From assembly GCA_964521755.1 (NCBI GenBank), contig CAZFSZ010000003.1:1-63617 (forward strand): 63,617 nucleotides of DNA, in the 5' to 3' direction. Position 1 is the stretch's first letter, and every line of letters begins with the position of its first letter. The notes under the pieces are model-generated. The model was given only the letters and a program-made list of their open reading frames with translations, did no database searches and was not told the DNA's origin. The position numbers and the translations under genes are program-made. Source of the DNA: an uncultured Methanosarcinales archaeon (lineage in GTDB: Archaea; Nanobdellota; Nanobdellia; Woesearchaeales; WJKL01). This document shows positions 2,742 through 41,806 of this stretch, in pieces.

Positions 2742-3236
2742 TTGTGTATGATAATCATTATATCTGGAACCCCTGGAACCGGAAAGACCACCCTTGCAAA
2801 AAAATTGATGAATGTATTAAATTATCCTCTGCTTGATTTAAAACATTTCATAAAGGAAAAAAATCTTGCAGAATCCTATGACAAAAAAAGAAAAACAAAT
2901 ATCATAGATATAAAAAAGCTGAATAAAGAGATTATAAAAGAGATTAAAAAAGTCCAGAACCAGCATTCGCCTAAAGGGATGATCATAGAATCTCATCTTT
3001 CCCACTATCTTCCAAAAAAATATGTAGGTTTGTGTATTATAACAAAAACAGGTTTAAAAACCTTAAAGAAAAGGCTTCAAAATAGGGGCTACAGCAAAGA
3101 AAAAATAAGAGAAAACATGGATTCAGAGATATTTGATGTCTGTTTAAATGAAGCAAAAGAAAGAGGCCACAATATATTAATAATAGACACAACAAAAACA
3201 ATAAATATAAAAGAAATAGCAAAAAAAATAAAATGA
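2742..3236 (+). CDS. P-loop nucleoside kinase, AK6/Fap7-like putative adenylate kinase
   Basis: N-terminal P-loop ISGTPGTGKTT. The ~160-aa size fits archaeal Fap7-type kinases. Confidence 0.65.
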   Translation: MCMIIIISGTPGTGKTTLAKKLMNVLNYPLLDLKHFIKEKNLAESYDKKRKTNIIDIKKLNKEIIKEIKKVQNQHSPKGMIIESHLSHYLPKKYVGLCIITKTGLKTLKKRLQNRGYSKEKIRENMDSEIFDVCLNEAKERGHNILIIDTTKTINIKEIAKKIK

Positions 3237-4342
3237 CAAAAAAACTGGCAGCGTTAGAGATTCATTATCTTTTAAAGGAATTTGAAACTTTGATAGATGC
3301 AAAAGTAGACAAAATATATGCTCCCAGGAAAAAAGAGCTGTTTCTGCGGCTTCATGTCCCAAATAAAGGAAAAAGAATATTAAAGATAGATGAAAAATCA
3401 ATGTATCTCACTGAATCAAGGCCAAAAGCGTCTTCTCCTTCTGATTTCTGCATGTATTTAAGAAAAAAATTATCTAATGCAAGGCTCAGGAAAATAGACC
3501 AAATAAGGTTCGAAAGGATAGTTTCTTTGACATTTGAAACCAAAACCCAGAATTTTCAGCTTATTGCTGAACTTTTCAGCAGAGGAAATATAATCTTGGT
3601 TCAGGACAAGAAAATCCTGGTTGCTGCAGAATATCAAAAATGGAAAACCAGGACAATCAGGCCTAGAGCAGTATATAAACATCCCAAAAAAGAATATAAT
3701 TTCTTGACCATAAAAAAGAAAGATTTCAAAGAGCTTCTTTCTTCTACAAACAAGGAAAATATTGTAAAATCCCTTGCTGTTGACCTGGGTCTTGGGGGAA
3801 CATATTCAGAAGAAGCATGTTTACTATCCAAAATTGACAAAGATAAAGACACTAAAAAAATGGATGATAAAGAGATCACTTCATTGTTTTCTGCATTGAC
3901 TGAAATTAAAAACAAAAAACTGGACCCAAGAATAGTCTATAAAAAAGATAAGATAATGGATCTTGTTCCATTTAAACTAGATATATATAAAGATCTTAAG
4001 CAGAAAAAAGCAGAATCATATTCAAAGATATTAAGCAAATATTTCTTAAAGATAAAATCAAGAATCCAAAAGCAAAAAAAGCAGAAAAAGCTTAACCAAA
4101 TAAAAGAGATCATAAAAGAACAGAAGCAAAGCATAAAAAATCTCAAAAAACAGGAAAAGATCAACAGAGAAAAAGCAGAAAAGATATATGAGAACTATCA
4201 AAAAATATCCAAACTCCTTAGCGAGCTTAAAGAAATCTCCAAAAAACATCCTTGGAAAGAGATAAAAGAAAAGCTAAAAAAACATAAACTTATCAAAGAA
4301 GTTATTCCCAAAGAAAAATCAGTTGTTATATATATTAAATAA
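3233..4342 (+). CDS. NFACT-N domain protein (Rqc2/FbpA N-terminal family), short form
   Basis: The N-terminal ~150 aa fit the NFACT-N pattern (DFCMYLRKKLSNARLRKIDQIRFERIV, LIAELFSRGNIIL). A K/E-rich coiled coil follows, and no NFACT-R/C part is visible. Confidence 0.55.
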   Translation: MTKKLAALEIHYLLKEFETLIDAKVDKIYAPRKKELFLRLHVPNKGKRILKIDEKSMYLTESRPKASSPSDFCMYLRKKLSNARLRKIDQIRFERIVSLTFETKTQNFQLIAELFSRGNIILVQDKKILVAAEYQKWKTRTIRPRAVYKHPKKEYNFLTIKKKDFKELLSSTNKENIVKSLAVDLGLGGTYSEEACLLSKIDKDKDTKKMDDKEITSLFSALTEIKNKKLDPRIVYKKDKIMDLVPFKLDIYKDLKQKKAESYSKILSKYFLKIKSRIQKQKKQKKLNQIKEIIKEQKQSIKNLKKQEKINREKAEKIYENYQKISKLLSELKEISKKHPWKEIKEKLKKHKLIKEVIPKEKSVVIYIK

Positions 4343-4347
4343 AAAAA
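4341..4347 (-). terminator. oligo-T run immediately after the 5S rRNA 3-prime end
   Basis: Seven A on the plus strand give TTTTTTT on the minus strand directly downstream of the 5S end. Confidence 0.4.
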
Positions 4348-4483
4348 GGTGGCAGCTTATCATGTTTCCCGCGTAGTGCGGTACACCATGATACGGAGGC
4401 TTGCTTAACTTTTACACATGTAAGCAATAGCTTAACATTCTGTGTTCAAATGGGTACAGGTGAACCAAGCCCCTATGGCCGCC
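4348..4483 (-). rRNA. rrf: 5S ribosomal RNA, orphan copy with an extra internal segment
   Basis: The minus strand reads GGCGGCCATAGGGGCTTGGTTCACCTGTACCCATTTGAACACAGAATGTTAAGC...TATCATGGTGTACCGCACTACGCGGGAAACATGATAAGCTGCCACC. It has the conserved loop C/helix III core, a helix I closure (GGCGGC/GCTGCC) and helix IV/V pairing (TATCATG/CATGATA, CCGC/GCGG). A TATA box sits 24-31 nt upstream. Confidence 0.85.
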
Positions 4484-4506
4484 TATAGATAAGAAAAAAT
4501 CAGGTA

Positions 4507-4514
4507 TTTATAAA
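4507..4514 (-). promoter_or_regulatory. TATA box (TTTATAAA) for 5S rRNA
   Basis: Palindromic box 24-31 nt upstream of the 5S 5-prime end at 4483. Confidence 0.5.
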
Positions 4515-4526
4515 GATTACGAAAAA

Positions 4527-5333
4527 TTAAACTATTTTCTTTGTATCTTTCTTTGTATGTATATGAATCTCTTTCTCACTGCTTAAATGTCCGTTAAGCA
4601 TGCCCTTCTCAGCTAATACAGGAAATACATCTTTTTCCAGCCAATCTCCGCTGTATTCAAATATTTCAGGCCCTGTAACAAACATACTGCTGAAACCAAT
4701 ATATGTATCTGAATCTTTTGGTTTTTGTATAAATTTGAGTATTTTGCTTCCTTCTATCTTAACAATACCTTTTTTACTTGGAGTAGCTGAAGAAGTAAGC
4801 ATCAAAGTAGTTGCAGCATTCTGCTTTAGATGATCATTCCAAAGCTCTTCAATATTTATTTTATTAAAGAATATGTCTCCATATATGACCAAAAAATTAG
4901 AGTTTATTTTTCCTTTTAATAATCTTAGGCTGTCTGCACTTCCTGATGATTTCTTTTCTTCAATATAATTGATTTTAACACCATATTTATCCCCATTTCC
5001 AACTAAGTTAAATACAGCAGTAAGAATTGGCTTTCTTGCAATAATAAATATAGTTTTAAAATTATTTTTTCTTAGTTTTTTTATTCCTTCTTCAATTAAA
5101 GTATTGTTTTTAATATTTGTAGTTATTCTATATTCATTTTTATTGATCTTTTGTTTTTTTACACTTCCACCACTTAAAATAACTGCAGTTTTATTTTCTC
5201 CCAGGGCATTGTCAACCAAATGCTCAATAGCCTGGCTTCTGTTTCTAATGTTAATATTATCAACTATATTATCAACTTCTTTTAACAGCCTTTTGTTTAT
5301 AGTAATGCTTATCTTTTCTTTCATGTCTTTCAT
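4527..5333 (-). CDS. Ribbon-helix-helix (CopG/NikR-like) domain fused to a sugar-nucleotidyltransferase-fold domain
   Basis: The N-terminus KISITINKRLLKEVDNIV...RNRSQAIEHLV is an RHH pattern. The remainder has an NTP_transferase-like layout (AVILSGG..., VIYGDIFF) but lacks the canonical GxGTRL loop. Promoter spacing favours the second Met at 5324 as the true start. Confidence 0.6.
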   Translation of the reverse strand: MKDMKEKISITINKRLLKEVDNIVDNINIRNRSQAIEHLVDNALGENKTAVILSGGSVKKQKINKNEYRITTNIKNNTLIEEGIKKLRKNNFKTIFIIARKPILTAVFNLVGNGDKYGVKINYIEEKKSSGSADSLRLLKGKINSNFLVIYGDIFFNKINIEELWNDHLKQNAATTLMLTSSATPSKKGIVKIEGSKILKFIQKPKDSDTYIGFSSMFVTGPEIFEYSGDWLEKDVFPVLAEKGMLNGHLSSEKEIHIHTKKDTKKIV

Positions 5334-8914: not shown

Positions 8915-10387
8915 ATGGGTTATGCGAGAAAAGCTGCTAAAAGCACAATTATTGTATTTGTTATAAGTATAGCTGCTGCTTTCTTAGGATATTTAATTAG
9001 AATGGTTTTAGCTAGGAAACTAACTCCTGCTGACTATGGTTTATTTTTTGCTGTCTTTACTTTTGTAAATTTTATTAGTATCTTTAAAAATTTGGGTTTA
9101 ACACATGCATTAGTCAAGTATATTCCTGACTTTCAAGTCAAGAAAAAACTAGATTCAATTAAAAGTGCTATCGTTACTGTTTTAGGTGTGAAAGTAGTTC
9201 TCTCTTTGATCTTTGCTTTGGGTATAATTTTATTTTCAGGCTATCTGGCTGACCATTATTTTAAAAATAAAGCTGCCGTTCCTTTACTTTTTATATTTGC
9301 CCTCATCATTGTAATTCAAAACTTAAAAGAAACACTTAAACTTCTTTTCAATGCTTTCCAAAAAATGACTTCTTTTTCATTTATGTATTTTATTGAAAAT
9401 CTAACGGTCTTAACTCTTATAATATTATTTTCTTATCTAAATCTCGGTGTTCTTTCTCCGGCTTTAGCTTACTTGTCTGCCTATTTGTTTGTTTTTGTTT
9501 TGTTCTTTCCTATCTTCCTTAAAACCTACAACATCTTTAGATATAAAACAAATCTGTCTTCCCAATTAACAAAAAAGCTCTTTAAATTTGGAATCCTCAC
9601 TACACTAGCAGGAGTTGGAGGCACCATCATCCTTTACACAGACACATTAATATTAACTCACTTCAGCTCTTTAGAAGAAGTCGGTATCTATAACGTTGTA
9701 GTTCCTACCGCTATGCTCCTTGACTTCTTTGGAAAATCTGTAGGACAGGTTATTTTTCCAATGGTTTCTGAACTTCATGCTAAAAAACTTAAAAAATACA
9801 TCTCTAAGGGCGCCCTACTATTACAAAAATATTCTTTTATCATCGTCATCCCTGCTGCATTGATTATGTTTTCTTTTCCTAGATTAATCATAAAAACATT
9901 ATTCGGAGCAGAATATATTTCTGGAGCTTTAACTTTACAACTATTAGTTATTGGGCTCATCTTTTTAGTTATAGCAAAAATCAATATGACTTTGTTAAGG
10001 GCCATCGATAAACCAGAACTTGGAACCAAAATGATGCTCATAGGTGGTTTATTCAACCTTCTAACTAATTTTTATTTTATACCCAAATTTGGCATGGTCG
10101 GAGCAGGTATAACTTCTCTGGCTAGTTACTTATTAACTTTAATTGTTTCTATATTCTACTTAACCAAACACATCGAAATAAAAACCCTTTGGTTTAATTG
10201 GCTAAAGATATTCCTTTCTGGAATAATCTTCATTGGAACTATTGACTTAATTAAAAACATCCTAGACATCAACATCTTCCTGGAAGCTACCTTGGCTATT
10301 TTTTTAGGAGGAATTGTCTACTTATTTTCCATTTGGTTATTTAGAGTTGTTAATATAAAAGAACTAAGGAATGTATTTGGTTTCTAA
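8915..10387 (+). CDS. polysaccharide/oligosaccharide flippase (MOP/Wzx family)
   Basis: About 14 predicted TM helices with a Wzx-like length and layout. Start set at MGYARKAAKS (8915), with TTTAAATA at 8885-8892. Confidence 0.7.
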   Translation: MGYARKAAKSTIIVFVISIAAAFLGYLIRMVLARKLTPADYGLFFAVFTFVNFISIFKNLGLTHALVKYIPDFQVKKKLDSIKSAIVTVLGVKVVLSLIFALGIILFSGYLADHYFKNKAAVPLLFIFALIIVIQNLKETLKLLFNAFQKMTSFSFMYFIENLTVLTLIILFSYLNLGVLSPALAYLSAYLFVFVLFFPIFLKTYNIFRYKTNLSSQLTKKLFKFGILTTLAGVGGTIILYTDTLILTHFSSLEEVGIYNVVVPTAMLLDFFGKSVGQVIFPMVSELHAKKLKKYISKGALLLQKYSFIIVIPAALIMFSFPRLIIKTLFGAEYISGALTLQLLVIGLIFLVIAKINMTLLRAIDKPELGTKMMLIGGLFNLLTNFYFIPKFGMVGAGITSLASYLLTLIVSIFYLTKHIEIKTLWFNWLKIFLSGIIFIGTIDLIKNILDINIFLEATLAIFLGGIVYLFSIWLFRVVNIKELRNVFGF

Positions 10388-10480
10388 ATATCAATATTGT
10401 CTGTTATTTTTAACTCTTTGTATTCTTTCATAATTTTCTTTAAAACAATTTATCTAAAAATAACACAAGAGTGTTTGTCA

Positions 10481-11221
10481 TCATATTTCATTAAAATAAT
10501 TAATATTCTTTATATCGTTTTCTAAAGAAGATCCTTTTTTAGGCACTTCAAAAGTCACTCTCTTTTCCTTACCAATACATTTCTTTAAAAAAGAAGCATC
10601 TAAATCTCCTTCCCATAAATTTAAATGTTTATCTTTTTCATTACTTAAATCTGCTCCACAAATATGGAAAATATTTGGATTAAATTTAAGATAATTTTGT
10701 ATGGCTTCTTTATAATCTTTTCCCTGACTTAAAGCACTTTTAGCTGCATGACCAAAGTCTAAACAAAACCCAAGATTTCCTATTTTTAATAATTCTCTAA
10801 ATTCCTTAATATTATAAGCAACAAAAATTTCCCCATCAACCAATGATTTTTTAGGAACATTCTCTAATATAATTCTGTTATCTTTTATTTGCTTTAAAAA
10901 ATATTTTGTATTCTCTATACCTCCACCAAAACCAGGATGGAAGATTACTTGTTTTGAATTTAACTTATCTGCAAAAGATAAAGTTTCTTTTAACTTCTCC
11001 ATATTGGAATCAAATAAACTCTTATCAGCCATATTAAAACCATGCCCATAATGTGGACCATGAATTACTATCTGCATCTTTAACTTCTCAAAATCAAAAC
11101 CTTCATAAGAACCAGGAACAGTATATAATTCCACATAATTAATTATTTCTTTTTCGTATAATCTATTGGCTTCTTCAAACCATTCTTCATTAGTTGTCCA
11201 TAGTTTTATTCCTGGTTTCAT
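10481..11221 (-). CDS. xylose-isomerase-like TIM-barrel protein (sugar phosphate isomerase/epimerase family)
   Basis: AP_endonuc_2-like pattern (VIFHPG, CLDFGHA, HICGAD). Last gene of the sugar operon, with a 4-nt overlap with the GNAT gene. Confidence 0.6.
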   Translation of the reverse strand: MKPGIKLWTTNEEWFEEANRLYEKEIINYVELYTVPGSYEGFDFEKLKMQIVIHGPHYGHGFNMADKSLFDSNMEKLKETLSFADKLNSKQVIFHPGFGGGIENTKYFLKQIKDNRIILENVPKKSLVDGEIFVAYNIKEFRELLKIGNLGFCLDFGHAAKSALSQGKDYKEAIQNYLKFNPNIFHICGADLSNEKDKHLNLWEGDLDASFLKKCIGKEKRVTFEVPKKGSSLENDIKNINYFNEI

Positions 11222-11691
11222 TCTTTATCATCATTGCTCAGTTTCATTATTAAAAGATTATTTTTTCCTCTCTCTTTTTTAAACCCATTTCTTTTAAAAA
11301 TCTTTATTGAAGCAATATTATGTTTTTTTATCCTTCCTAAAATATATTTAAAATTTAAATCAGAAAAACCTATCTTACAAGCATTGGTCAAAACTTTATC
11401 TCCAATACCTTTCCCCCTATAAAATTTATGTAAAGCAAGGTTTATTTCAGCCCCGCCGTTCTTTTCATCAAACCTAACCTGTCCAATCCTGGAACCATCA
11501 AAAACAATAATGAACGTGTGTTTATCCTCATCAAATAATGATTTCGAAAACCAATCTCTATGCTCTTTAGGTGACACTCTTTCTTGGCTAATTGAGTTTT
11601 TACGGACAACAGCATCGTTCCTTAGATTAAAAAGGAACTTTGAATCTTCTTTTGTTGCTTCCCTTAAAGTTATCTTTTTCAATTTAATCAT
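11218..11691 (-). CDS. GNAT N-acetyltransferase (PseH-like position)
   Basis: Acetyl-CoA binding motif HKFYRGKGIGDKVL. Lies within the nonulosonic acid operon. Confidence 0.7.
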   Translation of the reverse strand: MIKLKKITLREATKEDSKFLFNLRNDAVVRKNSISQERVSPKEHRDWFSKSLFDEDKHTFIIVFDGSRIGQVRFDEKNGGAEINLALHKFYRGKGIGDKVLTNACKIGFSDLNFKYILGRIKKHNIASIKIFKRNGFKKERGKNNLLIMKLSNDDKE

Positions 11692-12511
11692 TATCTAATT
11701 TACATGCATTTACAACATTCTCCATCAACATAGCTACGGTCACAGGACCAACCCCTCCTGGAACAGGAGTAATATAAGATGCTTTATCTTCAACTTTCTC
11801 AATATCAACATCACCAAAGACTTTCTTTCCTTTTTTGGATATACCAGCATCGATTACAACTGCTCCCTCTTTAACATTTTTTATTAGACCGGGTTTGCCT
11901 ACAGCAGTTATCAATATATCAGCTTTTTTTACATGATAGTCTAAATTTTGAGTTTTTCTATGGCATAATGTAACAGTTGCCCCTCTGTTTACCAACATGA
12001 TTGCAAGAGGTTTTCCAACAATGTTGCTGCTATTGACTACTGCAACATTTCTGCCCGTGATTTCTACATCATTATCCTTTAATAATTTAATAATGGCTTT
12101 GGGAGTTGCGGGAGCAAAAATTTCTTTCCCAAACATTGTTTTCCCTAGATTTAAGAATGTTAGACCATCAACATCTTTTTTGTGATCAATTTTATTGAGT
12201 ATTTTTTCCTTTTCAAATTTATCAGGTAGAGGCAATTGTATTATTATTCCATTTGAAGTTTTATTCAGTTGTTCAATTTTGTTATACAATATCTCTTGAT
12301 CTATGCCCTTAGGAAAATTGTGTATCTTCACGTCAATTCCAATCTCCTTGCCCTTATCCTTCTTGATATTTGTATACAGTATAGATTCTGGATTATCTCC
12401 TACAAGCACTATTGATAAAACAGGTGTTTTCTTAAATTGTAAAATCTCTTTTTTGAGAGCTGAAAATACTTCTTCAGACAATTTTTTTCCATCCATTATT
12501 TTATTTTTCAT
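11684..12511 (-). CDS. folD: bifunctional methylene-THF dehydrogenase / methenyl-THF cyclohydrolase
   Basis: IIQLPLP, KKDVDG, TPVPGGVGPVTVAML. Confidence 0.9.
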   Translation of the reverse strand: MKNKIMDGKKLSEEVFSALKKEILQFKKTPVLSIVLVGDNPESILYTNIKKDKGKEIGIDVKIHNFPKGIDQEILYNKIEQLNKTSNGIIIQLPLPDKFEKEKILNKIDHKKDVDGLTFLNLGKTMFGKEIFAPATPKAIIKLLKDNDVEITGRNVAVVNSSNIVGKPLAIMLVNRGATVTLCHRKTQNLDYHVKKADILITAVGKPGLIKNVKEGAVVIDAGISKKGKKVFGDVDIEKVEDKASYITPVPGGVGPVTVAMLMENVVNACKLDND

Positions 12512-13055
12512 TTTTAGAACAACTGATTATTTTTTCTTCAGTAATTATAAAATCCATTTTTTCATCATGTTCTTCAAAAGGTATCTCATCCTTAACTTGA
12601 AAATTATAAGCTAAACCAACCTTCGTTGTATTTATATTATTAAGAAATTTATCATAATAGCCTCCCCCATAACCAATCCGAGCTCCGTTTCTATCAAAAA
12701 CCACGCCAGGGATAATCATCATATCGAGTTTTCCTTCAAATATTTTCTTCTTGGCTGGTTCAAAAACTCCAAATCGTCCCCTTTCTAAATCACCATCATA
12801 AGAAGAAAAATTCATCTCCATATGGTTACCTATGAAAGGAAGGTATATGTTTTTGTTTATATTTAATATATTTTTAGTAAAGACTTCTTTTCCCTTAGAA
12901 ACATAAAACCCAACATTTTGGCTCTGGTTAAACTTTTCCCAGTCTAAAAGCAAACCCATAATTATTTTGCTTCTTTTTTTAATCTCTTCTTCCGAAAGTG
13001 AATTCCTAATATTCAAAACTTGCCCTCTAATATTTTTTTTATTATCCATTTTCAA
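12501..13055 (-). CDS. 5-formyltetrahydrofolate cyclo-ligase
   Basis: MMIIPGVVFDRNGARIGYGGGYYDKFL is the family hallmark. 184 aa. Confidence 0.85.
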   Translation of the reverse strand: MKMDNKKNIRGQVLNIRNSLSEEEIKKRSKIIMGLLLDWEKFNQSQNVGFYVSKGKEVFTKNILNINKNIYLPFIGNHMEMNFSSYDGDLERGRFGVFEPAKKKIFEGKLDMMIIPGVVFDRNGARIGYGGGYYDKFLNNINTTKVGLAYNFQVKDEIPFEEHDEKMDFIITEEKIISCSKNEK

Positions 13056-13521
13056 TTTTCTCCAAGCTTTTTAGAAGAACTTGAGAATACAGTGGGTAAA
13101 GTTCATTGTAGACCTCTACTATTGATGTTCCTTCTATCTTCTTAAAATCTTCACAAATGACTTGCCCTTCATCTATATTTTCTGTCATAATATGGCAACC
13201 CACTGAAGCCTTTTTATTTCCATCAACCAACAACCTCTTAATCGGATCAGCCCCCTTGTATTTATACAAGCAAGGGTGCAAATTGATACATAAACCCATA
13301 TCAAGTATCTTTTTTGGAATAATTTTTCTACCATGACAACAAACAAACAAATCAAAATCATCAATTTCATCTAAAGTTATCTCTTCTAAATCAAAATTAC
13401 TAGCTAAATCTTTTATTAGAGCATCTTCAGCAATAACTCTTGGGCTATATCCTTTTGATAAAAGAGTAAGCAAAGCTATAATGCCTGCTTGTCTTCCCCC
13501 ATAAAAAATAACTTTTTTCAT
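13042..13521 (-). CDS. formyltransferase catalytic-core protein (candidate sugar N-formyltransferase)
   Basis: INLHPCLYKYKGADPI and VGCHIMTENIDEGQVI give the Asn/His/Asp triad of Formyl_trans_N. Only 159 aa, with no C-terminal domain. Confidence 0.7.
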   Translation of the reverse strand: MKKVIFYGGRQAGIIALLTLLSKGYSPRVIAEDALIKDLASNFDLEEITLDEIDDFDLFVCCHGRKIIPKKILDMGLCINLHPCLYKYKGADPIKRLLVDGNKKASVGCHIMTENIDEGQVICEDFKKIEGTSIVEVYNELYPLYSQVLLKSLEKIENG

Positions 13522-14579
13522 TATTTTTCTCCAATATCTTTTAAATTAAGAGGCTCTCCTCTCTCCAACTCTTTTTTTGCTTTTTTACCCAAAACTTTTT
13601 CATAATGTTTTGGTTCTAAACCATAACCAGGCCTAATGACTCTAATATTTGCCTTAGTAAATTTTTCTCCTTTTTTAATATCATTGACTGCATAAATTGA
13701 TCTTCTGAAAACCATGTTTTTAACCTCATCTCCCGTTATTTTATAGTTAACTTCCCCTATTGACTGCTCAGCATTTCTTACCTTTTTTACCATCTCTAAA
13801 AGTTCCTTTGATTCAAGAGAAAAGCTTGCATCTGGCCCCCCATCTTCTCTTTTTAAAGTAAAATGTTTTTCAATAGCAACTGCTCCCATAGATACAGCAA
13901 CAATAGGGGCAACTACACCTAAAGAATGATCAGACAAGCCAGATAAAACATCAAATCTGTTTGGAATATCTGCAATTGTCTTGAGATTCATCTCTTCAAA
14001 CTTTGCTGGATAAGAACTTACACAATGAAGCAATATAATATCTTCAGCACCATTTTCTTTTAATGTTTTTACTGCTTCTTTAATCTCTTTTTCATTTGCC
14101 ATACCTCTCGACATAATCACTGGTTTGCCAGTTTTTGCAATCTTTTTTAATAAAGGTAAATGAGTAATCTCAAAGGAAGCAATCTTGTAAAGATTGACAT
14201 TAAGATCTTCTAAAAAATCAACGGCAGTTTCATCAAATGGTGTTGAGAACCAAACAAGCCCTTTTGACTCTGCATATTTTTTTAATTCTGGCTGCCATCC
14301 CCAAGGTGTATGAGCCCATTCATAAAGATCATAAAGAGTTTTTCCTTCCCACTCTTTTTTCCCCTTTACAATAAAATCTTCCTTGTCGCTATCAATTGTC
14401 ATTGTATCTGGAGTATAAGTCTGCATTTTAACTGCATTAACACCAGCTTCAGCAGCCTTATCGATCAATTTCTTAGCTCTATCCAAATCATGATTATGAT
14501 TCCCAGACATCTCCGCAATAATAAATACTGGTTGATCTTTTCCAATTTTAATTTTTTTGTTTTTTGTTCTTATTTCCAT
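13521..14579 (-). CDS. nonulosonic acid synthase (NeuB/PseI/LegI family)
   Basis: FIIAEMSGNHNHDLDRAKKLID N-terminus, TIM-barrel body and a C-terminal SAF-like segment. Confidence 0.85.
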   Translation of the reverse strand: MEIRTKNKKIKIGKDQPVFIIAEMSGNHNHDLDRAKKLIDKAAEAGVNAVKMQTYTPDTMTIDSDKEDFIVKGKKEWEGKTLYDLYEWAHTPWGWQPELKKYAESKGLVWFSTPFDETAVDFLEDLNVNLYKIASFEITHLPLLKKIAKTGKPVIMSRGMANEKEIKEAVKTLKENGAEDIILLHCVSSYPAKFEEMNLKTIADIPNRFDVLSGLSDHSLGVVAPIVAVSMGAVAIEKHFTLKREDGGPDASFSLESKELLEMVKKVRNAEQSIGEVNYKITGDEVKNMVFRRSIYAVNDIKKGEKFTKANIRVIRPGYGLEPKHYEKVLGKKAKKELERGEPLNLKDIGEK

Positions 14580-14668
14580 TTTCTAATTTGTTAAACTTTT
14601 AAATAATTGTAAGTCAATGAAACAACACCGCATTTTATTTTTAAAAATTATGATTATCTTCTTAAATA

Positions 14669-15799
14669 TCAAGAGATCATTTCAAAATAGCGTAAATTAT
14701 CTTCGTTAAATTGTTTGATTTGTTCATTTATATCTTTAAATTTTTTAAAACTATTCTTAGTGTCTTGTTTTAAAAGAGGAATAATTTGTGAGATCTGGTC
14801 CCGATATTCTTCACAAAAAATATAACTAAGAAATATTATCTTTTTTTTGAAAAATTTTGGGAACAAGATATAAAATAATCTTAAAATAAGAGTTATTATT
14901 GTATTAAATTTTTTTTTAACTGGTGTAGGAACAGATATTTTTTTATTTATTGTTAAACCATAATCTATTCCTCTTCCATCTTGTTCTAACAAATAAGAAG
15001 GTTTTCCAAAAGATAGAGCTGTAACATGACCATGCACTCTATAACCAACATGTAAATCATATTTTTTATATTCTCTAAGGCCTTCTTTATTATTATATAA
15101 TAAAGAATAAGAAATATTCCTATATTCTAAAAATTTTTTAATCATTTCATTTTCTCCATGAAAAAGAACCTCTACCTCTGATTTTGGAAATAATGATTTA
15201 AGATTAGAAATAAGTAAATCAAGAGCTTTTATGTATCTCTGTTGAGAATGAGGATCAGATATTGCTATTTTTTTTACTTTACTACTAATATCAATTTTCT
15301 TTGAAAAATTTTTAAGAAAAGCTATATCTCCTGAAAAATGAGCTTTTTTTAAACCTAACTTTTCACAAAAATATTGAGAAAGATACCCTCTAGTTGTAAA
15401 AAAAATTGATTGCCTATCTAATTCCTTAATTAAATCAATATCCTTTTCACTATATCCAGATAACATAGATTCTTTTTTAAATATATCAAGAGAAGTACCA
15501 GCAGATACCACAGCCAATTTTTTATTTTTCTTAAGTATATATTTAAGTGTTGGGTAAAATTTAAGAATATTTTTTCTTATTGCAAAACAAGCAAAAATGA
15601 TTACATCTGCATTTTTAATTTTTTTAAGAGCTTTTTTGTCTTTTTTCTCCCGCCAAATTATCTCAATAGATATATTTTTTTGAGTCTTATTTAAAGCTTT
15701 AATAACAGATTGAGTAATAAGTAAATCGCCGATATTTTTTGATCCTTGTTCTGGATAAGTAGAGATGATTAAATAATTTTTTATTTTTTGTTTTTTCAT
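14669..15799 (-). CDS. polysaccharide pyruvyl transferase family protein
   Basis: GSKNIGDLLI, TTRGYLSQYFCEKLGL...SGDIAFL and GYRVHGHVTALSFGKPSYLL follow the PS_pyruv_trans pattern. Confidence 0.55.
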   Translation of the reverse strand: MKKQKIKNYLIISTYPEQGSKNIGDLLITQSVIKALNKTQKNISIEIIWREKKDKKALKKIKNADVIIFACFAIRKNILKFYPTLKYILKKNKKLAVVSAGTSLDIFKKESMLSGYSEKDIDLIKELDRQSIFFTTRGYLSQYFCEKLGLKKAHFSGDIAFLKNFSKKIDISSKVKKIAISDPHSQQRYIKALDLLISNLKSLFPKSEVEVLFHGENEMIKKFLEYRNISYSLLYNNKEGLREYKKYDLHVGYRVHGHVTALSFGKPSYLLEQDGRGIDYGLTINKKISVPTPVKKKFNTIITLILRLFYILFPKFFKKKIIFLSYIFCEEYRDQISQIIPLLKQDTKNSFKKFKDINEQIKQFNEDNLRYFEMIS

Positions 15800-16527
15800 T
15801 TTTGATTCACTCTTTCATTGATTTTTTTTAAAAAAGTATTTTTCTCAAGAAATTTTACAACTTGGTTTAAATCAAAAAAATTGTCTTTCGAATATAATTC
15901 TTTAAATATTTTATTTAATAGTTCAAAATCCTTATGTTCATCTAATGTTAATCGATATTCAGAATAATCTTCATCATTATTTAATGAATATATTTTAAAG
16001 TTAGATGCATTTTTATGTATGTATCTTGTAACATGTTCTCTATTAATTTTTTTAGTTGCTTTTGAATCAATTAGTTTTAACGTTTCAAAGGACAACATTT
16101 CTACATCATATCCTCTTGGAAATTTTCTTATTGGAAAAATATTTGATATATAATCATAATTAGCATCTTTAAAAATTTTAATTAGTTTATTAATAATATT
16201 TTTGTCAACTAAAGGACAATCTGAAGTAACTCGAATGATGTTACCAAGTTCAAATTTTTTGGCGCATTTATAATATCTGTCCAAGACATCCTCCTCTGAA
16301 CCTCTGAAGTATTTATAACTTTTTTCTTCACAAAAAGAAACAATCTCATCATCTTGTTTCTCAACAGTTGTAGCCACTATAACTTCATCTACATCGGATT
16401 TTTTACATCTTTCAACAACATGTTGTAAAACTGGCTTACCAACTAAATCTAACATAATTTTCCTAGGAAGCCTTGTAGAACCCATCCTTGCTTGAATTAT
16501 GATCCCTGTCTTATTCAAAGTAATCAC
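15796..16527 (-). CDS. cytidylyltransferase (SpsF/PseF-like, CMP-nonulosonic acid synthetase candidate)
   Basis: IIQARMGSTRLPRKIM N-terminal motif. About 240 aa. Confidence 0.75.
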   Translation of the reverse strand: MITLNKTGIIIQARMGSTRLPRKIMLDLVGKPVLQHVVERCKKSDVDEVIVATTVEKQDDEIVSFCEEKSYKYFRGSEEDVLDRYYKCAKKFELGNIIRVTSDCPLVDKNIINKLIKIFKDANYDYISNIFPIRKFPRGYDVEMLSFETLKLIDSKATKKINREHVTRYIHKNASNFKIYSLNNDEDYSEYRLTLDEHKDFELLNKIFKELYSKDNFFDLNQVVKFLEKNTFLKKINERVNQK

Positions 16528-17638
16528 CTATTGCTTTTATAACCTCTTTTTGCCCTTCATCCTTTAGACTAGGATATATGGGCAGACTAAGTATCTTTCC
16601 ATAAAAATCTTCTGCCTTTGGACATAATCCTCTCTCATAACCTAACTTTTGATAATAAGGATGCCAGTAAACAGGAATATAATGTACCTGGCATAAAATA
16701 TCATTTTCTTTTAAATAATTAAATAAATCCAATCTTTTTTCTTTGTCAACTTTAACGACAAACAAATGATAAGCATTCAATTGGCCTTCATTTTCCTCGA
16801 TCACTTCTACATTATCCATGTCCTCAAAGGCTTTCTTATACTTATCAGCAATTTCTCCCCTTTTAGCAACAAATTCATCTATTTTATTTAACTGGCTCAC
16901 TCCCAAAGCACATTGTATATCACTCAATCTATAATTAAAACCAAGCTCCTGCATTTCACAATACCAGGGGCCATCCTTATCATTAACAAAGTTGTCTTCC
17001 TTTTTTGTAATTCCATGTGTTCTCAATATCAACAACTTTTCATACAATTCCATTGAATTGGTAGTTATCATCCCTCCTTCCCCAGTAGTTATATGTTTAA
17101 CAGGATGAAAACTAAAAACTGCCATATCAGAATATTGACAATCTCCTATCTTTGAACCCTTATATTTACCACCTAAAGCATGACAGGCATCTTCAATTAT
17201 AATTAAATCATTTTTATCAGCAACTTTTTTTATCTTTTTCATATTACAAGCTAGCCCCGAATAATGAACAGGAACAATAACTTTAGTTTTATCGACAACT
17301 TTCTCTTCAATCTTATCAACATTAATCAAACCTCGTTCATTTATATCTACAAACCTTGGTTTTGCCCCACAATACAAACCACAATTAGCTGAAGCAGCAA
17401 AAGTCATCGGAGAAGTAATCAATTCATCTCCATCAGTTAAACCGGCTGCTAAACAAGCTAAATGTAAAGCTGCTGTACCATTAGCCACAGCTACAGCATA
17501 TTTAACTCCAACATAATCAGCAAACTTATCTTCAAACTCTTTAATCTTGGGCCCAGTAGTTAAGAAATCACTCTCTAAAACTTTCTTTACTTCTTCGACA
17601 TCTTTCTTATCAATTGTTTGTCTTCCATAATTTATCAT
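16511..17638 (-). CDS. DegT/DnrJ/EryC1-type PLP aminotransferase (PseC-like)
   Basis: Family layout with the PLP-lysine context SFHPVKHITTGEGG. Confidence 0.85.
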   Translation of the reverse strand: MINYGRQTIDKKDVEEVKKVLESDFLTTGPKIKEFEDKFADYVGVKYAVAVANGTAALHLACLAAGLTDGDELITSPMTFAASANCGLYCGAKPRFVDINERGLINVDKIEEKVVDKTKVIVPVHYSGLACNMKKIKKVADKNDLIIIEDACHALGGKYKGSKIGDCQYSDMAVFSFHPVKHITTGEGGMITTNSMELYEKLLILRTHGITKKEDNFVNDKDGPWYCEMQELGFNYRLSDIQCALGVSQLNKIDEFVAKRGEIADKYKKAFEDMDNVEVIEENEGQLNAYHLFVVKVDKEKRLDLFNYLKENDILCQVHYIPVYWHPYYQKLGYERGLCPKAEDFYGKILSLPIYPSLKDEGQKEVIKAIGDYFE

Positions 17639-18681
17639 ATTAAATCCAAATCCTCAAACAAATCTTTTACTTCTTCTTTTGAAACTACTGCATTCTTTGA
17701 ACTATATCCTTTTAATTTTTCTTCATTTAATCTTTTTCCTTTTTTGACATAAACAGCATTGTTCTTCTTATTGTACTTTTCTATTTGAGAAGTTATCACA
17801 AACATATTTTTAAACCCATAAGTCCTTGGCACCTCAGATGTATTAACCATCATTTCGTTAATCTTCTCTCCTGGCCTAATACCAATCATTTCCACTCCGT
17901 TGTTTGCATCATGTTTTTCTTTCAAAATTTCAATCAAATCTGTAATCTTAAATGCAGGTAACTTAGGAACAAAAACTTCTCCTCCCTTACCATATCTAAT
18001 AGCATCAAAAATAAGATCAACTGCTTTTTTTGGACTTATAATGAACCTAGTCATTCTTTCATCTGTCAAAGGAATTTTCTCTCCATTTTTTATCTTTGAC
18101 TCAAAAAAAGGTATTACTGATCCTGTACTTTGTAAAACATTTCCATATCTAACACAAGAAAAAATTGTTGGTTTATCTCCTTTATTATAATTACTTTCCA
18201 CAAAAATCCTTTCACTTACAAATTTACATGCTCCATATGTGTTGACCGGAGAACAAGCCTTGTCTGTAGAAACAAAAATGGCTTTTTTGACATTGTTCTC
18301 TAAGCAAGCATCTACCACGTTTTGAGTTCCTAAAACATTTGTTTTTATACATTCCTCTACATTATACTCTAAAATATCTAATCTCTTAAGAGCGGCTGCA
18401 TGAATCACTATATCGCAATCTCTAGCAGCTTTTTTCAATCTTTCTTTATCCCTTACATTTCCAATCAAATTCCTGATATTATCTTTATAATTAAGTTTAC
18501 TTAATTTATTATCTCCATTAAACCACTCTTTTAGTTTATGGTGTTTTACTTCATCTCTACTTAAAACACGAATAGAATGAGGTTTGTACTTTAAAATTCC
18601 TTTTATTAGGTGTCTTCCTAAAAAACCAGTGCCTCCTGTGATTAATATTGTTTTGCCTTCAAACATTTCTTCATTTTTCAT
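17635..18681 (-). CDS. UDP-GlcNAc 4,6-dehydratase (PseB/FlaA1/CapD-like SDR)
   Basis: ILITGGTGFLG, SRDEVKH, STDKACSPVNTYGACK (YxxxK). Confidence 0.85.
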   Translation of the reverse strand: MKNEEMFEGKTILITGGTGFLGRHLIKGILKYKPHSIRVLSRDEVKHHKLKEWFNGDNKLSKLNYKDNIRNLIGNVRDKERLKKAARDCDIVIHAAALKRLDILEYNVEECIKTNVLGTQNVVDACLENNVKKAIFVSTDKACSPVNTYGACKFVSERIFVESNYNKGDKPTIFSCVRYGNVLQSTGSVIPFFESKIKNGEKIPLTDERMTRFIISPKKAVDLIFDAIRYGKGGEVFVPKLPAFKITDLIEILKEKHDANNGVEMIGIRPGEKINEMMVNTSEVPRTYGFKNMFVITSQIEKYNKKNNAVYVKKGKRLNEEKLKGYSSKNAVVSKEEVKDLFEDLDLI

Positions 18682-19144
18682 CTAGATCACCTTTCCATAG
18701 ATTTAACATATCATAATCCTCAAACTTATGAACTTTTGTTGTCAAAGATTCAGACCAATCTACAATATTATCAAACTTTTTTCTCATCTCATCTGTAATT
18801 TTACCTAAATCATCATAATCTTTAGATATTATCACAATCTTAAAATCCCATTCTCCGGCAAGTTCTATCAATTCTGTCACTCTTTCATGTTTTCTCAAAT
18901 AATCAATAAATTCTTTTTTATCACCATGTAATTTAACCAACACTTCCACTATATTAGGAAAACCAAAATGTCTCGGTCTTAGTTGGACTTTTGGATAAAA
19001 CACTTCTCCTTCCATTTTTTCTATTCTTTTCTTTACAGAATCAACAGACAAATCCACTCTTTTACCAATATCCGTTAAAGACATCCTACAATTTTTTTGC
19101 AATAAATTAAGTATTTTGCAGTTTTTTTTGTCTAATTTAACCAT
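18671..19144 (-). CDS. Lrp/AsnC family transcriptional regulator
   Basis: N-terminal HTH (ILNLLQKNCRMSLTDIGKRVDLSVDSVKKRIEKM) plus a C-terminal RAM-like half. Confidence 0.8.
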   Translation of the reverse strand: MVKLDKKNCKILNLLQKNCRMSLTDIGKRVDLSVDSVKKRIEKMEGEVFYPKVQLRPRHFGFPNIVEVLVKLHGDKKEFIDYLRKHERVTELIELAGEWDFKIVIISKDYDDLGKITDEMRKKFDNIVDWSESLTTKVHKFEDYDMLNLWKGDLDEK

Positions 19145-19187: not shown

Positions 19188-20999
19188 TTATAACATATCT
19201 TTAATGACTTTAACCGCTCTTTCACTTGCCTTACCATCTAAAGCAAAAAAATGCTTTTCTAAAAAGTCATCACTTTTCTTTGAAAAAGAAGAAAAATCGC
19301 CTTCAATAATTCTATTCACCTCAATTTGAAGTTCTTCTTGACTAACAGCCAGAGGAACAATTTTTCCTATAGCATAAGGTAATCTAAAATCACTGTTCCC
19401 AAAATTAACAACTACCATGGGTTTCCCTGCTATTAAAACTTCATAACCAATCGTAGATTCATAGGTAATCACTAAATCAGATACTGCCAATAAATCTTTA
19501 AAGTCTATGTAACACACTATTGCATAATCTTCAACACCAAACTTAGACAAATAATTCTTTATTGTACTTTTGATGTTTGGGTCCTCATTTGGATGTAATT
19601 TTATGATTACCTGACCATCATAATTACTCAAACACTCGATAGCTGTCCTCAAATATTTTTTTTCCCAAGAAAGAGAACCAGTAATAATGAGAAAGATTTT
19701 CTTTTTTTCATCAAACCCAAGTTTGTCATAAACCTTATCTTCATTAACATCACTTAGATTCTCTACCAAAGAATCATACTTTGGAGCACCAATTATTTTA
19801 AGCGCATTAGTTGGGTAATGAGCCTCTTTCACAAACCATTTCTTAGAGCAATCGCCCCACAACAATTTTAAATCAGGCAAAGGCCTCCACAAAGAACTTG
19901 AAGATTTATTCATCTCCTTTGTTTTTGTACTCCTTAAGTAATCATTCTTGTCATATACTAATTCCCCTTCGAAACAAATAGTATTAGTGTCTTTTTTTCT
20001 GGCATTCACAATAAAACCTTTATCATAAAAATTTTTTTCATGTTCTAACAACACAATTGATGGTTTTTCTTCTTCCAACATTTTCCTTGTAGACACCAAA
20101 ACATCAGCAACATAATAACTTAAAACCCCAAAAATATAATCTAAACTATCTTTTACTAAAGGATAAAAATTTATGCCTTTGTAACTTAAAGAATCTTTAA
20201 ACTCTGATCTTCTCATGATATTTCTTCCCAATTCACCAAACTTTTTCCCTTTCTTAAAAATATTAAAGATCAACCTAACATCATAATAATCCCCTATAAA
20301 ATTAGATTTTTGTTTTCTCAAAAAATACCTCCGGATTGTCTTTCTCAAATTATTAAAACTATGAGGCCTATCATACTCCACCATTTTATAATCGATTTCT
20401 TCCTTATCCAATTCTTTGATTATAGAACCAAAAAACAGATCATCTTTAACACCTTCCAGTGTATGTCTATCATTAGTCAAAATAAAAACATCCTTTTTGT
20501 CTCTATTTCTCTTATGAAAGAACGACAATAAAAATCTAAAAAACAGTCTAATTTTAATGAAAAATATAACCAAAAATTTATTATGATAAAATTTTTTTTT
20601 GTCCTTCTTAATTTTATTTTTTACAATGTCAATCCCTTCTTTTTCTCCTATCTTTCTTAAAACAAAGTAATCTACACTGTCAACACCAGATAAAATGATT
20701 TCTTCCGGCTTATTACCCTTAACTAACCATAAATAAAAATCAATCTTATACAAAACTCGAGAAAAAGACAAAAGAGGACCTTCTAATACACGAGAGCTAT
20801 CTCTAATGAAGTATTCATAAAAATACCAAAGAGTGTGACCATTCCAAACCAAGATATCTTTAAGAGATTTCCCGCCATATAATTCCTTATCGGCCCATCC
20901 CTCAACCCATTTATACCCATAACTAAACATTTCTTTTTCTTTTTTGAATTCCCTATCATAAACACTTATCTTCTCCTCATTTAAATATAACTTTTTCAT
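19188..20999 (-). CDS. hypothetical protein with a GT-B-like C-terminal half (WecB/TagF-like)
   Basis: The C-terminal ~200 aa (IIKLHPNEDPNIK, ITYESTIGYEVLIAGKPMVVV, ALDGKASERAVKVI) resemble 2-epimerase/TagF-type GT-B folds. The N-terminal 400 aa are unassigned. Confidence 0.4.
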   Translation of the reverse strand: MKKLYLNEEKISVYDREFKKEKEMFSYGYKWVEGWADKELYGGKSLKDILVWNGHTLWYFYEYFIRDSSRVLEGPLLSFSRVLYKIDFYLWLVKGNKPEEIILSGVDSVDYFVLRKIGEKEGIDIVKNKIKKDKKKFYHNKFLVIFFIKIRLFFRFLLSFFHKRNRDKKDVFILTNDRHTLEGVKDDLFFGSIIKELDKEEIDYKMVEYDRPHSFNNLRKTIRRYFLRKQKSNFIGDYYDVRLIFNIFKKGKKFGELGRNIMRRSEFKDSLSYKGINFYPLVKDSLDYIFGVLSYYVADVLVSTRKMLEEEKPSIVLLEHEKNFYDKGFIVNARKKDTNTICFEGELVYDKNDYLRSTKTKEMNKSSSSLWRPLPDLKLLWGDCSKKWFVKEAHYPTNALKIIGAPKYDSLVENLSDVNEDKVYDKLGFDEKKKIFLIITGSLSWEKKYLRTAIECLSNYDGQVIIKLHPNEDPNIKSTIKNYLSKFGVEDYAIVCYIDFKDLLAVSDLVITYESTIGYEVLIAGKPMVVVNFGNSDFRLPYAIGKIVPLAVSQEELQIEVNRIIEGDFSSFSKKSDDFLEKHFFALDGKASERAVKVIKDML

Positions 21000-41687: not shown

Positions 41688-41806
41688 TGGGGATGCTGGG
41701 ATTCGAACCCAGATCTGGTGGTATATCCCAGGTATAATTCATCGTCTTTAGACTCATCGCTCCATGACTGGAGCCACCCATTCTAGCCAGGTTATACTAC
41801 ATCCCC
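41688..41806 (-). tRNA. tRNA-Trp (CCA) with a 45-nt intron at canonical position 37/38
   Basis: Acceptor GGGGATG/CATCCCC, anticodon stem GGTGG/CCACC with loop CTCCAG|A, T arm CTGGG-TTCGAAT-CCCAG. No encoded CCA. The D stem is weak. Confidence 0.82.
41723..41767 (-). other. tRNA-Trp intron (BHB)
   Basis: 3-nt bulges AG|U and AU|A are separated by the U33-A, C34-G, C35-G helix. The inner helix is CA.GG/CC.UG. Confidence 0.7.

Follow-up and report, generated by a model that had tools for sequence, protein, structure and literature searches.

Sugar N-formyltransferases such as VioF use N10-formyl-tetrahydrofolate (N10-formyl-THF) as their established donor and act on dTDP-, GDP- or UDP-hexosamines. 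Among the nonulosonic acids (NulOs), the N-formylation of pseudaminic acid (Pse) is not new, since an enzyme carrying it out, PseJ, is already known; Reimer et al. 2018 (ACS Chem Biol 13:3161) reportedly assign it to the route by which Anoxybacillus kamchatkensis makes CMP-Pse5Ac7Fo, where it is said to act on the PseC product and to replace the acetylation by PseH. PseJ also appears in PMC11040635, as a cited result, in the role of the enzyme making the Pse5Ac7Fo precursor. Two other NulO clusters with a formyltransferase have been described: in Halorubrum sp. PV6, formylated legionaminic acid (Leg) is found on the S-layer N-glycan and the formyltransferase gene HrrPV6_1050 lies in the Leg cluster (PMC6137143), and in Ca. 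Kuenenia stuttgartiensis a cluster with a deacetylase and a formyltransferase is associated with a NulO on S-layer N-glycans (SugarBase preprint); the word "folate" occurs zero times in either of these two texts. The present analysis concerns a ten-gene operon of the Pse type, in which a compact formyltransferase (FT) is accompanied by two folate genes, on contig CAZFSZ010000003.1 (assembly GCA_964521755.1) of an uncultured, tiny archaeon of the symbiotic type (Woesearchaeota); the whole stretch analysed, of 63,617 nucleotides (nt), is called the window below. A first-pass annotation of this DNA, made from the sequence alone, had singled out the operon and had mentioned a 5-N-formyl-legionaminic acid on a haloarchaeal N-glycan, correctly, as the Halorubrum work documents (PMC6137143).

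The reading preferred here, to which we give a probability of about 0.68, is that the operon makes a CMP-activated, N-formylated sugar of the pseudaminic acid type and encodes some of the enzymes that supply its formyl donor; the product is most likely CMP-Pse5Ac7Fo, for use in AglB-dependent N-glycans. The ten genes run on the minus strand from 18681 to 10481 and mostly overlap one another by 1-17 nt; from PseB down, the junctions are overlaps of 4, 17 and 4 nt, a gap of 89 nt, and overlaps of 1, 14, 11, 8 and 4 nt, the sole gap falling between a pyruvyltransferase-family gene and PseI. The pseudaminic acid synthase PseI, of the NeuB family (13521-14579; TIGR03586 493.5 bits, cut-off 340.25; the NeuB_NnaB model stays under its own cut-off), is followed by the FT, a protein of 159 amino acids (aa) comprising the catalytic N-domain only (13042-13521; PF00551 Formyl_trans_N 44.1 bits, cut-off 26.1, residues 56-129), by the 5-formyl-THF cyclo-ligase MTHFS (12501-13055; TIGR02727 152.7 bits, cut-off 84.9; PF01812 5-FTHF_cyc-lig 131.7 bits, cut-off 27) and by FolD (11684-12511; PF02882 202.2 bits; PF00763 96.7 bits). 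The first-pass annotation had taken these last three for a formyltransferase core, a cyclo-ligase and FolD, linked to each other and to their neighbours by overlaps of 1-14 nt: the reading frames and junctions were confirmed, on the minus strand, searches with Pfam domains and hidden Markov models (Formyl_trans_N, 5-FTHF_cyc-lig and the FolD domains) agree with the identities, and each of the motifs that it had quoted (INLHP..GADPI, GCHIMTENIDEG, GYGGGYYDKFL, LPLP, DVDG, PVPGGVGPVT) is found in the translations.

The operon opens with a PseB-like UDP-GlcNAc 4,6-dehydratase (17635-18681; Polysacc_synt_2 308.7 bits; TIGR03589 357 bits, under the cut-off of 407.75), overlapping by 4 nt the aminotransferase PseC (16511-17638; TIGR03588 509.9 bits, over the cut-off of 423.5), after which comes a CTP_transf_3 cytidylyltransferase, presumed to be a PseF-type CMP-sugar synthetase (15796-16527; PF02348 115.6 bits; PseF equivalog 27.4 bits against a cut-off of 205.7). 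It closes, downstream of FolD, with a weakly PseH-like N-acetyltransferase of the GNAT type (11218-11691; Acetyltransf_3 69 bits; TIGR03585 PseH 52.8 bits, under the cut-off of 93.1) and with an AP_endonuc_2 (xylose-isomerase-like) TIM-barrel protein (10481-11221; PF01261 49.3 bits). Tested against the canonical Pse pathway, PseC and PseI pass their equivalog cut-offs and PseB, PseH and PseF fall below theirs, the general family matches being strong.

The context of the FT was surveyed in 118 related loci (27 from species-representative GTDB genomes, 80 from metagenomes and 11 individually retrieved), annotated at E<1e-4 by searches with the proteins of the window and with SHMT, PseG and WbuX; collapsing the FT sequences at 95% identity gave 95 non-redundant loci, the window included, of which 40 are well flanked (at least 3 kb on each side). 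In 33 of the 40 well-flanked loci and in 22 of the 27 species-representative genomes, a PseI-type synthase is found no further than 1.2 kb from the FT; most of the 40 also carry PseB, PseC and the cytidylyltransferase. A PseH-like GNAT is found near the FT in five of the 40 and was not detected in the other 35, which fits an FT that supplies the N-acyl step, in the slot otherwise held by PseH; the expected product is then the 7-formamido sugar Pse5Ac7Fo. A GNAT adjoins the FT in L078, is nearby in L067 and L071, and is fused to it in L044 as a protein of 440 aa (9746-11068). The stage at which it acts is suggested by fusion proteins of PseG and FT (526-550 aa), present in four loci (L066, L088, L095, L100), which point to the UDP-sugar level; a bona fide PseG (TIGR03590 197-201 bits) is also encoded directly ahead of the FT in one Iainarchaeum and one Methanomicrobiales genome. 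The earlier expectation of an N-formylated 5,7-diamino nonulosonic acid as the product of the operon is thus supported by the proximity of PseI and by the PseG-FT fusions.

Linkage to folate genes is a second recurrent property of the family. Of the 95 non-redundant loci, 14 have one or more such genes no further than 2.5 kb from the FT, and of the 40 with good flanks, 8 do; the binomial P for this is 1e-5 or lower if three folate genes are placed randomly in a genome of 0.6-1.5 Mb. The order in the window is FT-MTHFS-FolD-GNAT-AP_endonuc_2; in L039, whose FT (66% identical to that of the window) is the closest among the well-flanked relatives, it is FT-SHMT-x-(MTHFS~FolD fusion)-AP_endonuc_2, in an Aenigmatarchaeota genome (L029) FT-MTHFS-SHMT-FolD, in another Woesearchaeota genome (L006/L016) FT-MTHFS-SHMT followed by the contig end, in a Micrarchaeia genome (L023) FT-x-FolD, in L078 FolD-MTHFS-FT-GNAT and in L118 FT-AP_endonuc_2-x-SHMT-FolD. 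The shorter arrangement FT-FolD occurs in L015 (Staskawiczbacteria) and in six metagenome loci (L041, L050, L051, L054, L055, L056), with a CTP_transf_3 cytidylyltransferase after FolD in all of them except L041, a 1.7-kb contig ending past FolD; in these loci, as in L023, FolD is present without MTHFS. SHMT belongs to the clusters of L006/L016, L029, L039, L118, L119 and L120, standing between MTHFS and FolD in L029 and L119 and beside them in L006, L039, L118 and L120. On a neighbour-joining tree of the FT, built without support values, the folate-linked loci are dispersed over at least seven places; since they are scattered in this way and their gene orders differ, repeated selection for the proximity of FT and folate genes is indicated.

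Physical joining of the folate genes, and the company kept by the closest homologues of the window's copies, agree with this picture. Three fusions of MTHFS and FolD were found, one in the FT locus L039 (8511-9911, 466 aa) and two, P0140 and P0141, in L122 and L123; the start of the L123 fusion is overlapped by a DegT/PseC-type aminotransferase gene, and the L122 fusion adjoins a PMT_2 glycosyltransferase gene. The three nearest homologues examined of the window FolD (55-61% identity; L119, L120, L121) all sit in sugar or NulO clusters: L119 (1033-6148) reads FT(257 aa)-MTHFS-SHMT-FolD-NeuC/LegG-like epimerase-PIG-L deacetylase, L121 (4398-8843) reads NeuB-PIG-L-FT(254 aa)-epimerase-FolD, and L120 reads SHMT-FolD-flippase. 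MTHFS and FolD of the window have their nearest relatives in L119 (50% and 61% identity), yet the longer formyltransferases of L119 and L121 (254-257 aa) have no BLAST similarity to the window FT, and the folate module is therefore associated with NulO formyltransferases of two families. The first-pass annotation had held that folate genes and sugar pathway are wired together in function, and this is supported: their linkage is found again in other DPANN archaea and in bacteria of the Candidate Phyla Radiation (CPR), and the neighbourhood survey that it had called for, in which an absence of FolD or MTHFS next to NeuB genes in relatives would have spoken against it, finds them there repeatedly; what has to be given up is the implied uniqueness to this archaeon, the cassette recurring also with a second, non-homologous type of formyltransferase in Leg-like clusters.

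To the compact FT family belong over 150 proteins (160-180 aa, 40-71% identity), nearly all from metagenome bins of CPR/Patescibacteria and DPANN. The catalytic triad Asn80, His82 and Asp117 is invariant across an alignment of 28 members, in which the N-subdomain of the window FT is shorter than in most. The AlphaFold (AF2) model of the window FT (pLDDT 97.2) ends after the catalytic domain, with no C-terminal domain, and Foldseek aligns it to the catalytic N-domains of Fmt, ArnA, WbkC and WlaRD with a query-normalised TM score of 0.83-0.91, and to that of VioF with 0.8-0.9. The best single-sequence matches in the PDB are VioF (E 3e-12) and the Francisella 4-N-formyltransferase; with the family profile, Fmt, ArnA and VioF score 45-55 bits and PseJ (6ci2/6ci4) 26.6 bits (E 4.4e-5). 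Three specific identities were considered and set aside. As Fmt, the protein scores 45 bits with TIGR00460 against a cut-off of 201.5, has no C-terminal tRNA-binding domain, belongs to an archaeal host and lies in an invariant sugar context; as PurN (the GAR transformylase), it scores 26.5 bits with TIGR00639 against a cut-off of 150.1; as a PseJ orthologue, it reaches only the profile score just given, under those of Fmt, ArnA and VioF, and PseJ is not within the top 50 fold matches of the model. The FT thus forms a branch separate from PseJ, not orthologous to it and most probably its functional analogue, and on the grounds of family and gene context it is predicted to be the sugar N-formyltransferase of the Pse pathway, with the donor and acceptor proposed accordingly. 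According to the first-pass annotation, a protein grouping with Fmt or PurN and devoid of the Asn/His/Asp triad would have refuted its reading; the triad is present, and an identity as Fmt or PurN was set aside as above; the structural comparison that it had proposed returned the N-domain fold of a formyltransferase and did not tell a sugar enzyme from Fmt.

Several observations weigh against the preferred reading. Sequence, profile and fold searches fail to separate the FT from the catalytic domains of Fmt, ArnA and PurN; in the fold search, all catalytic domains score alike. The operon also holds the PseH-like GNAT, for which the amine acted on by the FT would be a substrate too, so that a mixed product is possible or the FT may act elsewhere. 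PseG has no homologue in the window (phmmer with the verified PseG of L034, TIGR03590 197 bits, E<1e-4), and the route is hence not the textbook Pse pathway, an absence that the first-pass annotation had overlooked. FolD residues ~160-169 read V-N-S-S-N-I-V-G-K-P against the usual G-R-S-x-x-V-G-x-P, the Arg being lost. SHMT, Fhs and the glycine cleavage system were not found in the 63.6 kb of the window by Pfam scans of its open reading frames (four scans, covering all frames of at least 120 aa), and the FolD and MTHFS of the operon, in the 63.6 kb seen, may be the sole, housekeeping copies. Finally, some 80-85% of the FT loci have no linked folate genes, which makes the linkage optional.

The last two points would fit the view that FolD and MTHFS are ordinary one-carbon genes, serving for example thymidylate or amino acids, and came into the operon by genome compaction or hitch-hiking. 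Both proteins resemble ordinary members of their families, folate genes accompany the FT in only ~15-20% of loci, and in reduced genomes, operons often bring together genes that have nothing to do with each other. We nevertheless regard this view as improbable: the linkage is seen at no fewer than seven places on the FT tree, in varied gene orders and with two non-homologous types of formyltransferase, at a chance expectation of 1e-5 or lower; the folate genes directly adjoin or overlap the FT, and the nearest FolD homologues examined, all three, lie in sugar clusters. Moreover, being the only copy in the genome and being functionally coupled to the FT can both hold.

The presence of the GNAT bears on another view, in which the FT belongs to the Pse pathway but has a different acceptor (for example N5 after deacetylation, the nonulosonic acid itself, either free or bound to CMP, or a different amino sugar in the glycan) and the GNAT is the true PseH. 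Besides the shared operon, the fusion of FT and GNAT in L044 and their adjacency in L078 suggest partners and not alternatives, and Leg-type clusters (L119, L121; SugarBase preprint) formylate after a PIG-L deacetylase step. On the other side, the window operon has no deacetylase gene; where a PseH-like GNAT is undetected, as in 35 of the 40 well-flanked loci, N7 would be left unacylated unless the FT acts on it; and the fusions with PseG put the FT at the UDP-sugar stage. Taken with the reported use of the PseC product by PseJ, the characterised analogue (Reimer et al. 2018), these points make a different acceptor quite unlikely in our estimate. Under the preferred reading, in which the FT acts on the PseC product, the GNAT beside it could belong to a side branch that yields Pse5Ac7Ac in parallel, or could acylate a second position.

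As for the one-carbon chemistry, SHMT transfers the one-carbon unit of serine to give 5,10-methylene-THF, which the dehydrogenase activity of FolD converts into 5,10-methenyl-THF and its cyclohydrolase activity into N10-formyl-THF. A side reaction of SHMT makes 5-formyl-THF from methenyl-THF, and this compound inhibits folate enzymes; to our knowledge, MTHFS is the only enzyme that brings it back into the folate pool, in an ATP-dependent reaction that gives 5,10-methenyl-THF. The first-pass annotation had read the three genes as a closed loop, from 5-formyl-THF by cyclo-ligase and FolD cyclohydrolase to N-formylation: each step is correct, and the loop is not closed, because formyl transfer leaves THF and no enzyme of the operon turns THF into 5-formyl-THF. 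No further folate-dependent or folate-charging gene was found among the scanned open reading frames of the window. Because the fuller cassettes of relatives include SHMT, a serine-fed cycle through this enzyme is favoured; the one-carbon input is likely to be serine, with SHMT encoded elsewhere in the host genome, and the full cassette FT-MTHFS-SHMT-FolD would amount to a complete line from serine to formyl sugar with its own repair enzyme. The window cassette resembles this archaeal block minus SHMT, and a glyA located elsewhere is preferred over imported 5-formyl-THF. The window FolD has its characteristic motifs YTNIK (YxxxK), QLPLP, DVDG, PATP and PVPGGVGP; both Pfam domains and the catalytic motifs pass, and its best NCBIfam equivalog score is 276.5 bits, under the cut-off of 355. 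At the site of its N-S-S motif, the FolD of L119 has N-H-S, and the change may affect cofactor preference or dehydrogenase activity.

If the loop of the first-pass annotation is taken literally, 5-formyl-THF is a stored donor for which MTHFS and the cyclohydrolase half of FolD suffice, neither SHMT nor the dehydrogenase activity being needed; the workable form of this model is the scavenging of folinate from a host. It would account for a cassette that has MTHFS and FolD and yet no SHMT, Fhs or glycine cleavage genes within 63.6 kb, and for an NADP-type motif changed to N-S-S, as a dehydrogenase of reduced activity might have; DPANN archaea are presumed to rely on their hosts for cofactors, and folinate is the most stable natural folate. 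Right after SHMT-FolD in L118 (5128-6610) lie genes for a weak match to the S-component of ECF transporters (22.9 bits, below the cut-off) and for a strong member of the F420-0:gamma-glutamyl ligase (CofE) family, hinting at folate uptake and retention; in this one locus, folate uptake and glutamylation may thus have been attached to the cassette. Yet the encoded enzymes cannot return to 5-formyl-THF the THF released by the FT, and a scavenged cofactor available at vitamin level, if used stoichiometrically, would seem insufficient for a bulk surface sugar. The cassettes with SHMT (L029, L119; L006, L039, L118, L120) point instead to a catalytic cycle fed by serine, and the many loci with FolD and no MTHFS mark the latter as the dispensable part. 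On balance, we consider the stored-donor model unlikely.

Under the preferred reading, the pathway would proceed as follows. PseB and PseC would convert UDP-GlcNAc into UDP-4-amino-4,6-dideoxy-L-AltNAc, and the FT, replacing the PseH-like GNAT or working alongside it, would transfer the formyl group of N10-formyl-THF to the 4-amine of the PseC product, which becomes N7 of the nonulosonic acid, hence Pse5Ac7Fo. The nucleotide would then be removed, with the AP_endonuc_2 protein as candidate, PseG being absent; PseI would condense the sugar with phosphoenolpyruvate, the CTP_transf_3 enzyme would activate the condensed product, and the surrounding glycan genes with AglB would place it on surface proteins. 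Formyl transfer would free THF, and FolD would remake N10-formyl-THF from 5,10-methylene-THF by its dehydrogenase and then its cyclohydrolase activity. MTHFS would act on a side branch of salvage or repair, converting into 5,10-methenyl-THF the 5-formyl-THF that arises as a dead-end by-product of SHMT and methenyl-THF chemistry or from scavenged folate, and so keep a small folate pool from being trapped. The initiator tRNA of archaea is not formylated and DPANN genomes commonly lack purine synthesis; since formylmethionyl-tRNA would thus make no demand on the pool, and purines probably none, sugar formylation is perhaps the main consumer of 10-formyl-THF in this reduced archaeon, and a donor supply transferred together with the FT would be an advantage that may explain the clustering.

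Two further features were seen in the neighbourhoods of the FT. WbuX-type N-acetyl-sugar amidotransferases are found near it in 16 of the 40 well-flanked loci (including L001, L007, L015, L050, L051 and L054), accompanied in L002/L015 by HisH/HisF-like partners, which suggests Pse derivatives bearing both a formyl and an acetamidino group. The compact FT is also present in Pse clusters of methanogens (L027, L036 and L037; Methanosarcinaceae, Methanomicrobiales and Methanofastidiosum), where folate genes are not linked to it; the main one-carbon carrier of methanogens is tetrahydromethanopterin, not folate, and the question is therefore raised of the formyl donor used by these enzymes.

The place of PseG in the route may have been taken over by other proteins. 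Among the 40 well-flanked loci, 7 carry PseG, 10 an AP_endonuc_2 protein and 8 a DUF218 protein, and none carries more than one of the three; for this three-way exclusivity P = 7e-4 if the three were independent, with no correction for phylogeny. A comparison of PseG and AP_endonuc_2 as a pair was tried as well and dropped: none of 28 loci has both, yet the Fisher p of 0.16-0.21 is not significant. The AP_endonuc_2 protein recurs in the related loci L001, L004/L018, L007, L032, L037, L039, L057, L067, L071, L084, L085 and L118; members of the family share invariant His, Glu and Asp residues, and the family profile finds MJ1311 and metal phosphodiesterases of the endonuclease IV type as closest entries in the PDB. 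In L039 the gene set PseB, PseC~cytidylyltransferase (a fusion of 629 aa, 3236-5125), PseI, FT and AP_endonuc_2 would correspond one-to-one to the six Pse steps, if the last were to carry out that of PseG. The AP_endonuc_2 protein may therefore be a non-homologous stand-in for the UDP-sugar hydrolase PseG, and is offered as a lead.

A wider and more speculative proposal, which we hold to be rather doubtful at present, is that in reduced DPANN (and some CPR) organisms the oxidised folate branch survives mainly to decorate surface NulOs. It would travel as a mobile and self-sufficient unit able to join Pse and Leg clusters alike, made up of FT, MTHFS, SHMT and FolD, in some cases as fusions, and perhaps accompanied by genes for folate uptake and glutamylation; in these clusters, AP_endonuc_2 or DUF218 proteins would have replaced the PseG step. 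The preferred reading itself, if correct, would give a metabolic reason, namely the supply of formyl groups to a surface sugar, for the persistence of FolD, SHMT and MTHFS in highly reduced DPANN and CPR genomes, and would imply that formylated pseudaminic and legionaminic acids are widespread on the surfaces of uncultured episymbionts, for which cell-cell contact with the host is central. In practical terms, the family of ~160 aa is a candidate minimal sugar N-formyltransferase; such an enzyme would help to make Pse5Ac7Fo by chemoenzymatic synthesis, the present route being a chemical one (PMC11040635). The fusions MTHFS-FolD, PseG-FT, FT-GNAT and PseC-cytidylyltransferase may be used to annotate such clusters, and the AP_endonuc_2 and DUF218 proteins are flagged as testable candidates for the PseG step.

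The operon is surrounded by a glycan island of ~30 kb that holds nucleotidyltransferases, a UDP-glucose dehydrogenase, a flippase, glycosyltransferases, a sulfatase and an asparagine-synthase-like amidotransferase, and at whose far end lies the AglB/STT3 oligosaccharyltransferase (32499-35606, minus strand; PF02516 STT3 144.4 bits plus an STT3-PglB core domain), the likely user of the finished glycan. Within the operon, between the cytidylyltransferase and PseI, a polysaccharide pyruvyl transferase-family protein is encoded (14669-15799; PF04230 82.1 bits), a counterpart of which was detected in 0 of the 118 related loci at E<1e-4. An AsnC/Lrp-type regulator (18671-19144, minus strand; HTH_AsnC-type and AsnC_trans_reg domains) overlaps the start of pseB by 11 nt; it is seemingly co-transcribed with the sugar genes and is a possible regulator of the operon. 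Just upstream of it, a protein of 603 aa (19188-20999, minus strand) has a C-terminal Glyphos_transf / Epimerase_2-like domain of the GT-B type and is a candidate nonulosonic-acid transferase or alternative hydrolase; in the loci of CPR relatives, Capsule_synth (KpsS-like) genes are found in its place. The host is an archaeon, with an intron-containing tRNA and with genes for aIF5A, aIF5B, eRF1 and AglB, which domain scans found in the window together with Trm1; its aIF5B is 91% identical to a protein of a metagenome-assembled Candidatus Woesearchaeota genome. The tRNA gene (119 nt, 41688-41806, minus strand; Rfam 44.7 bits), in which an intron is presumed, was missed by ARAGORN, which gave no tRNA, and the eRF1 gene (55433-58054, plus strand, 873 aa) is interrupted by an intein with a LAGLIDADG homing-endonuclease domain and an HTH_3 domain. 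A protein of 1489 aa (43441-47910, minus strand), with two BcrAD_BadFG ATPase stretches and a DUF2229 CoA-enzyme-activase domain, is unexpected for a reduced DPANN genome.

When the locus is set against the known systems, PseJ is the closest in function: both enzymes are small, single-domain Formyl_trans_N proteins devoid of a C-terminal domain and encoded in a Pse cluster, and the role predicted for the window FT is the same, whereas in sequence the two are only distantly related (26.6 bits, against 45-55 for Fmt, ArnA and VioF); we know of no folate genes reported for the PseJ cluster. The enzymes of the VioF type (VioF, WbtJ/4nv1, WlaRD, WbkC, FdtF/QdtF and the N-domain of ArnA) share the catalytic fold and the Asn/His/Asp triad, and differ in their length of 240-400 aa and in their extra C-terminal or ankyrin domains, the window FT having 159 aa; their gene clusters are not known to us to carry FolD, MTHFS or SHMT. 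The Leg clusters of Halorubrum and Kuenenia are likewise archaeal or environmental NulO clusters with an embedded formyltransferase, and the deacetylase plus formyltransferase of Kuenenia is matched by the PIG-L protein and long FT of L119 and L121; they are set apart by a NeuC/LegG epimerase, a deacetylase, formylation at N5, and a longer FT that is non-homologous to that of the window by BLAST. With the housekeeping cycle (GlyA/SHMT, FolD, MTHFS/YgfA), in which the salvage by MTHFS of the SHMT by-product 5-formyl-THF is established biochemistry, the operon shares the same enzymes and presumably the same reactions; here, however, translational coupling ties the genes to a glycan pathway, and they are fused in relatives and co-inherited with a sugar enzyme that consumes formyl groups and not with purine or formylmethionine functions. 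A limited literature search found no earlier description of FolD, MTHFS or SHMT inside NulO clusters, or of the compact FT family as a Pse enzyme, and prior reports may exist. Sugar N-formyltransferases, Pse5Ac7Fo and the formyltransferases of Leg clusters being already known, what is new here is a NulO cluster in which a formyltransferase other than PseJ is combined with a cofactor-charging module encoded in the cluster itself.

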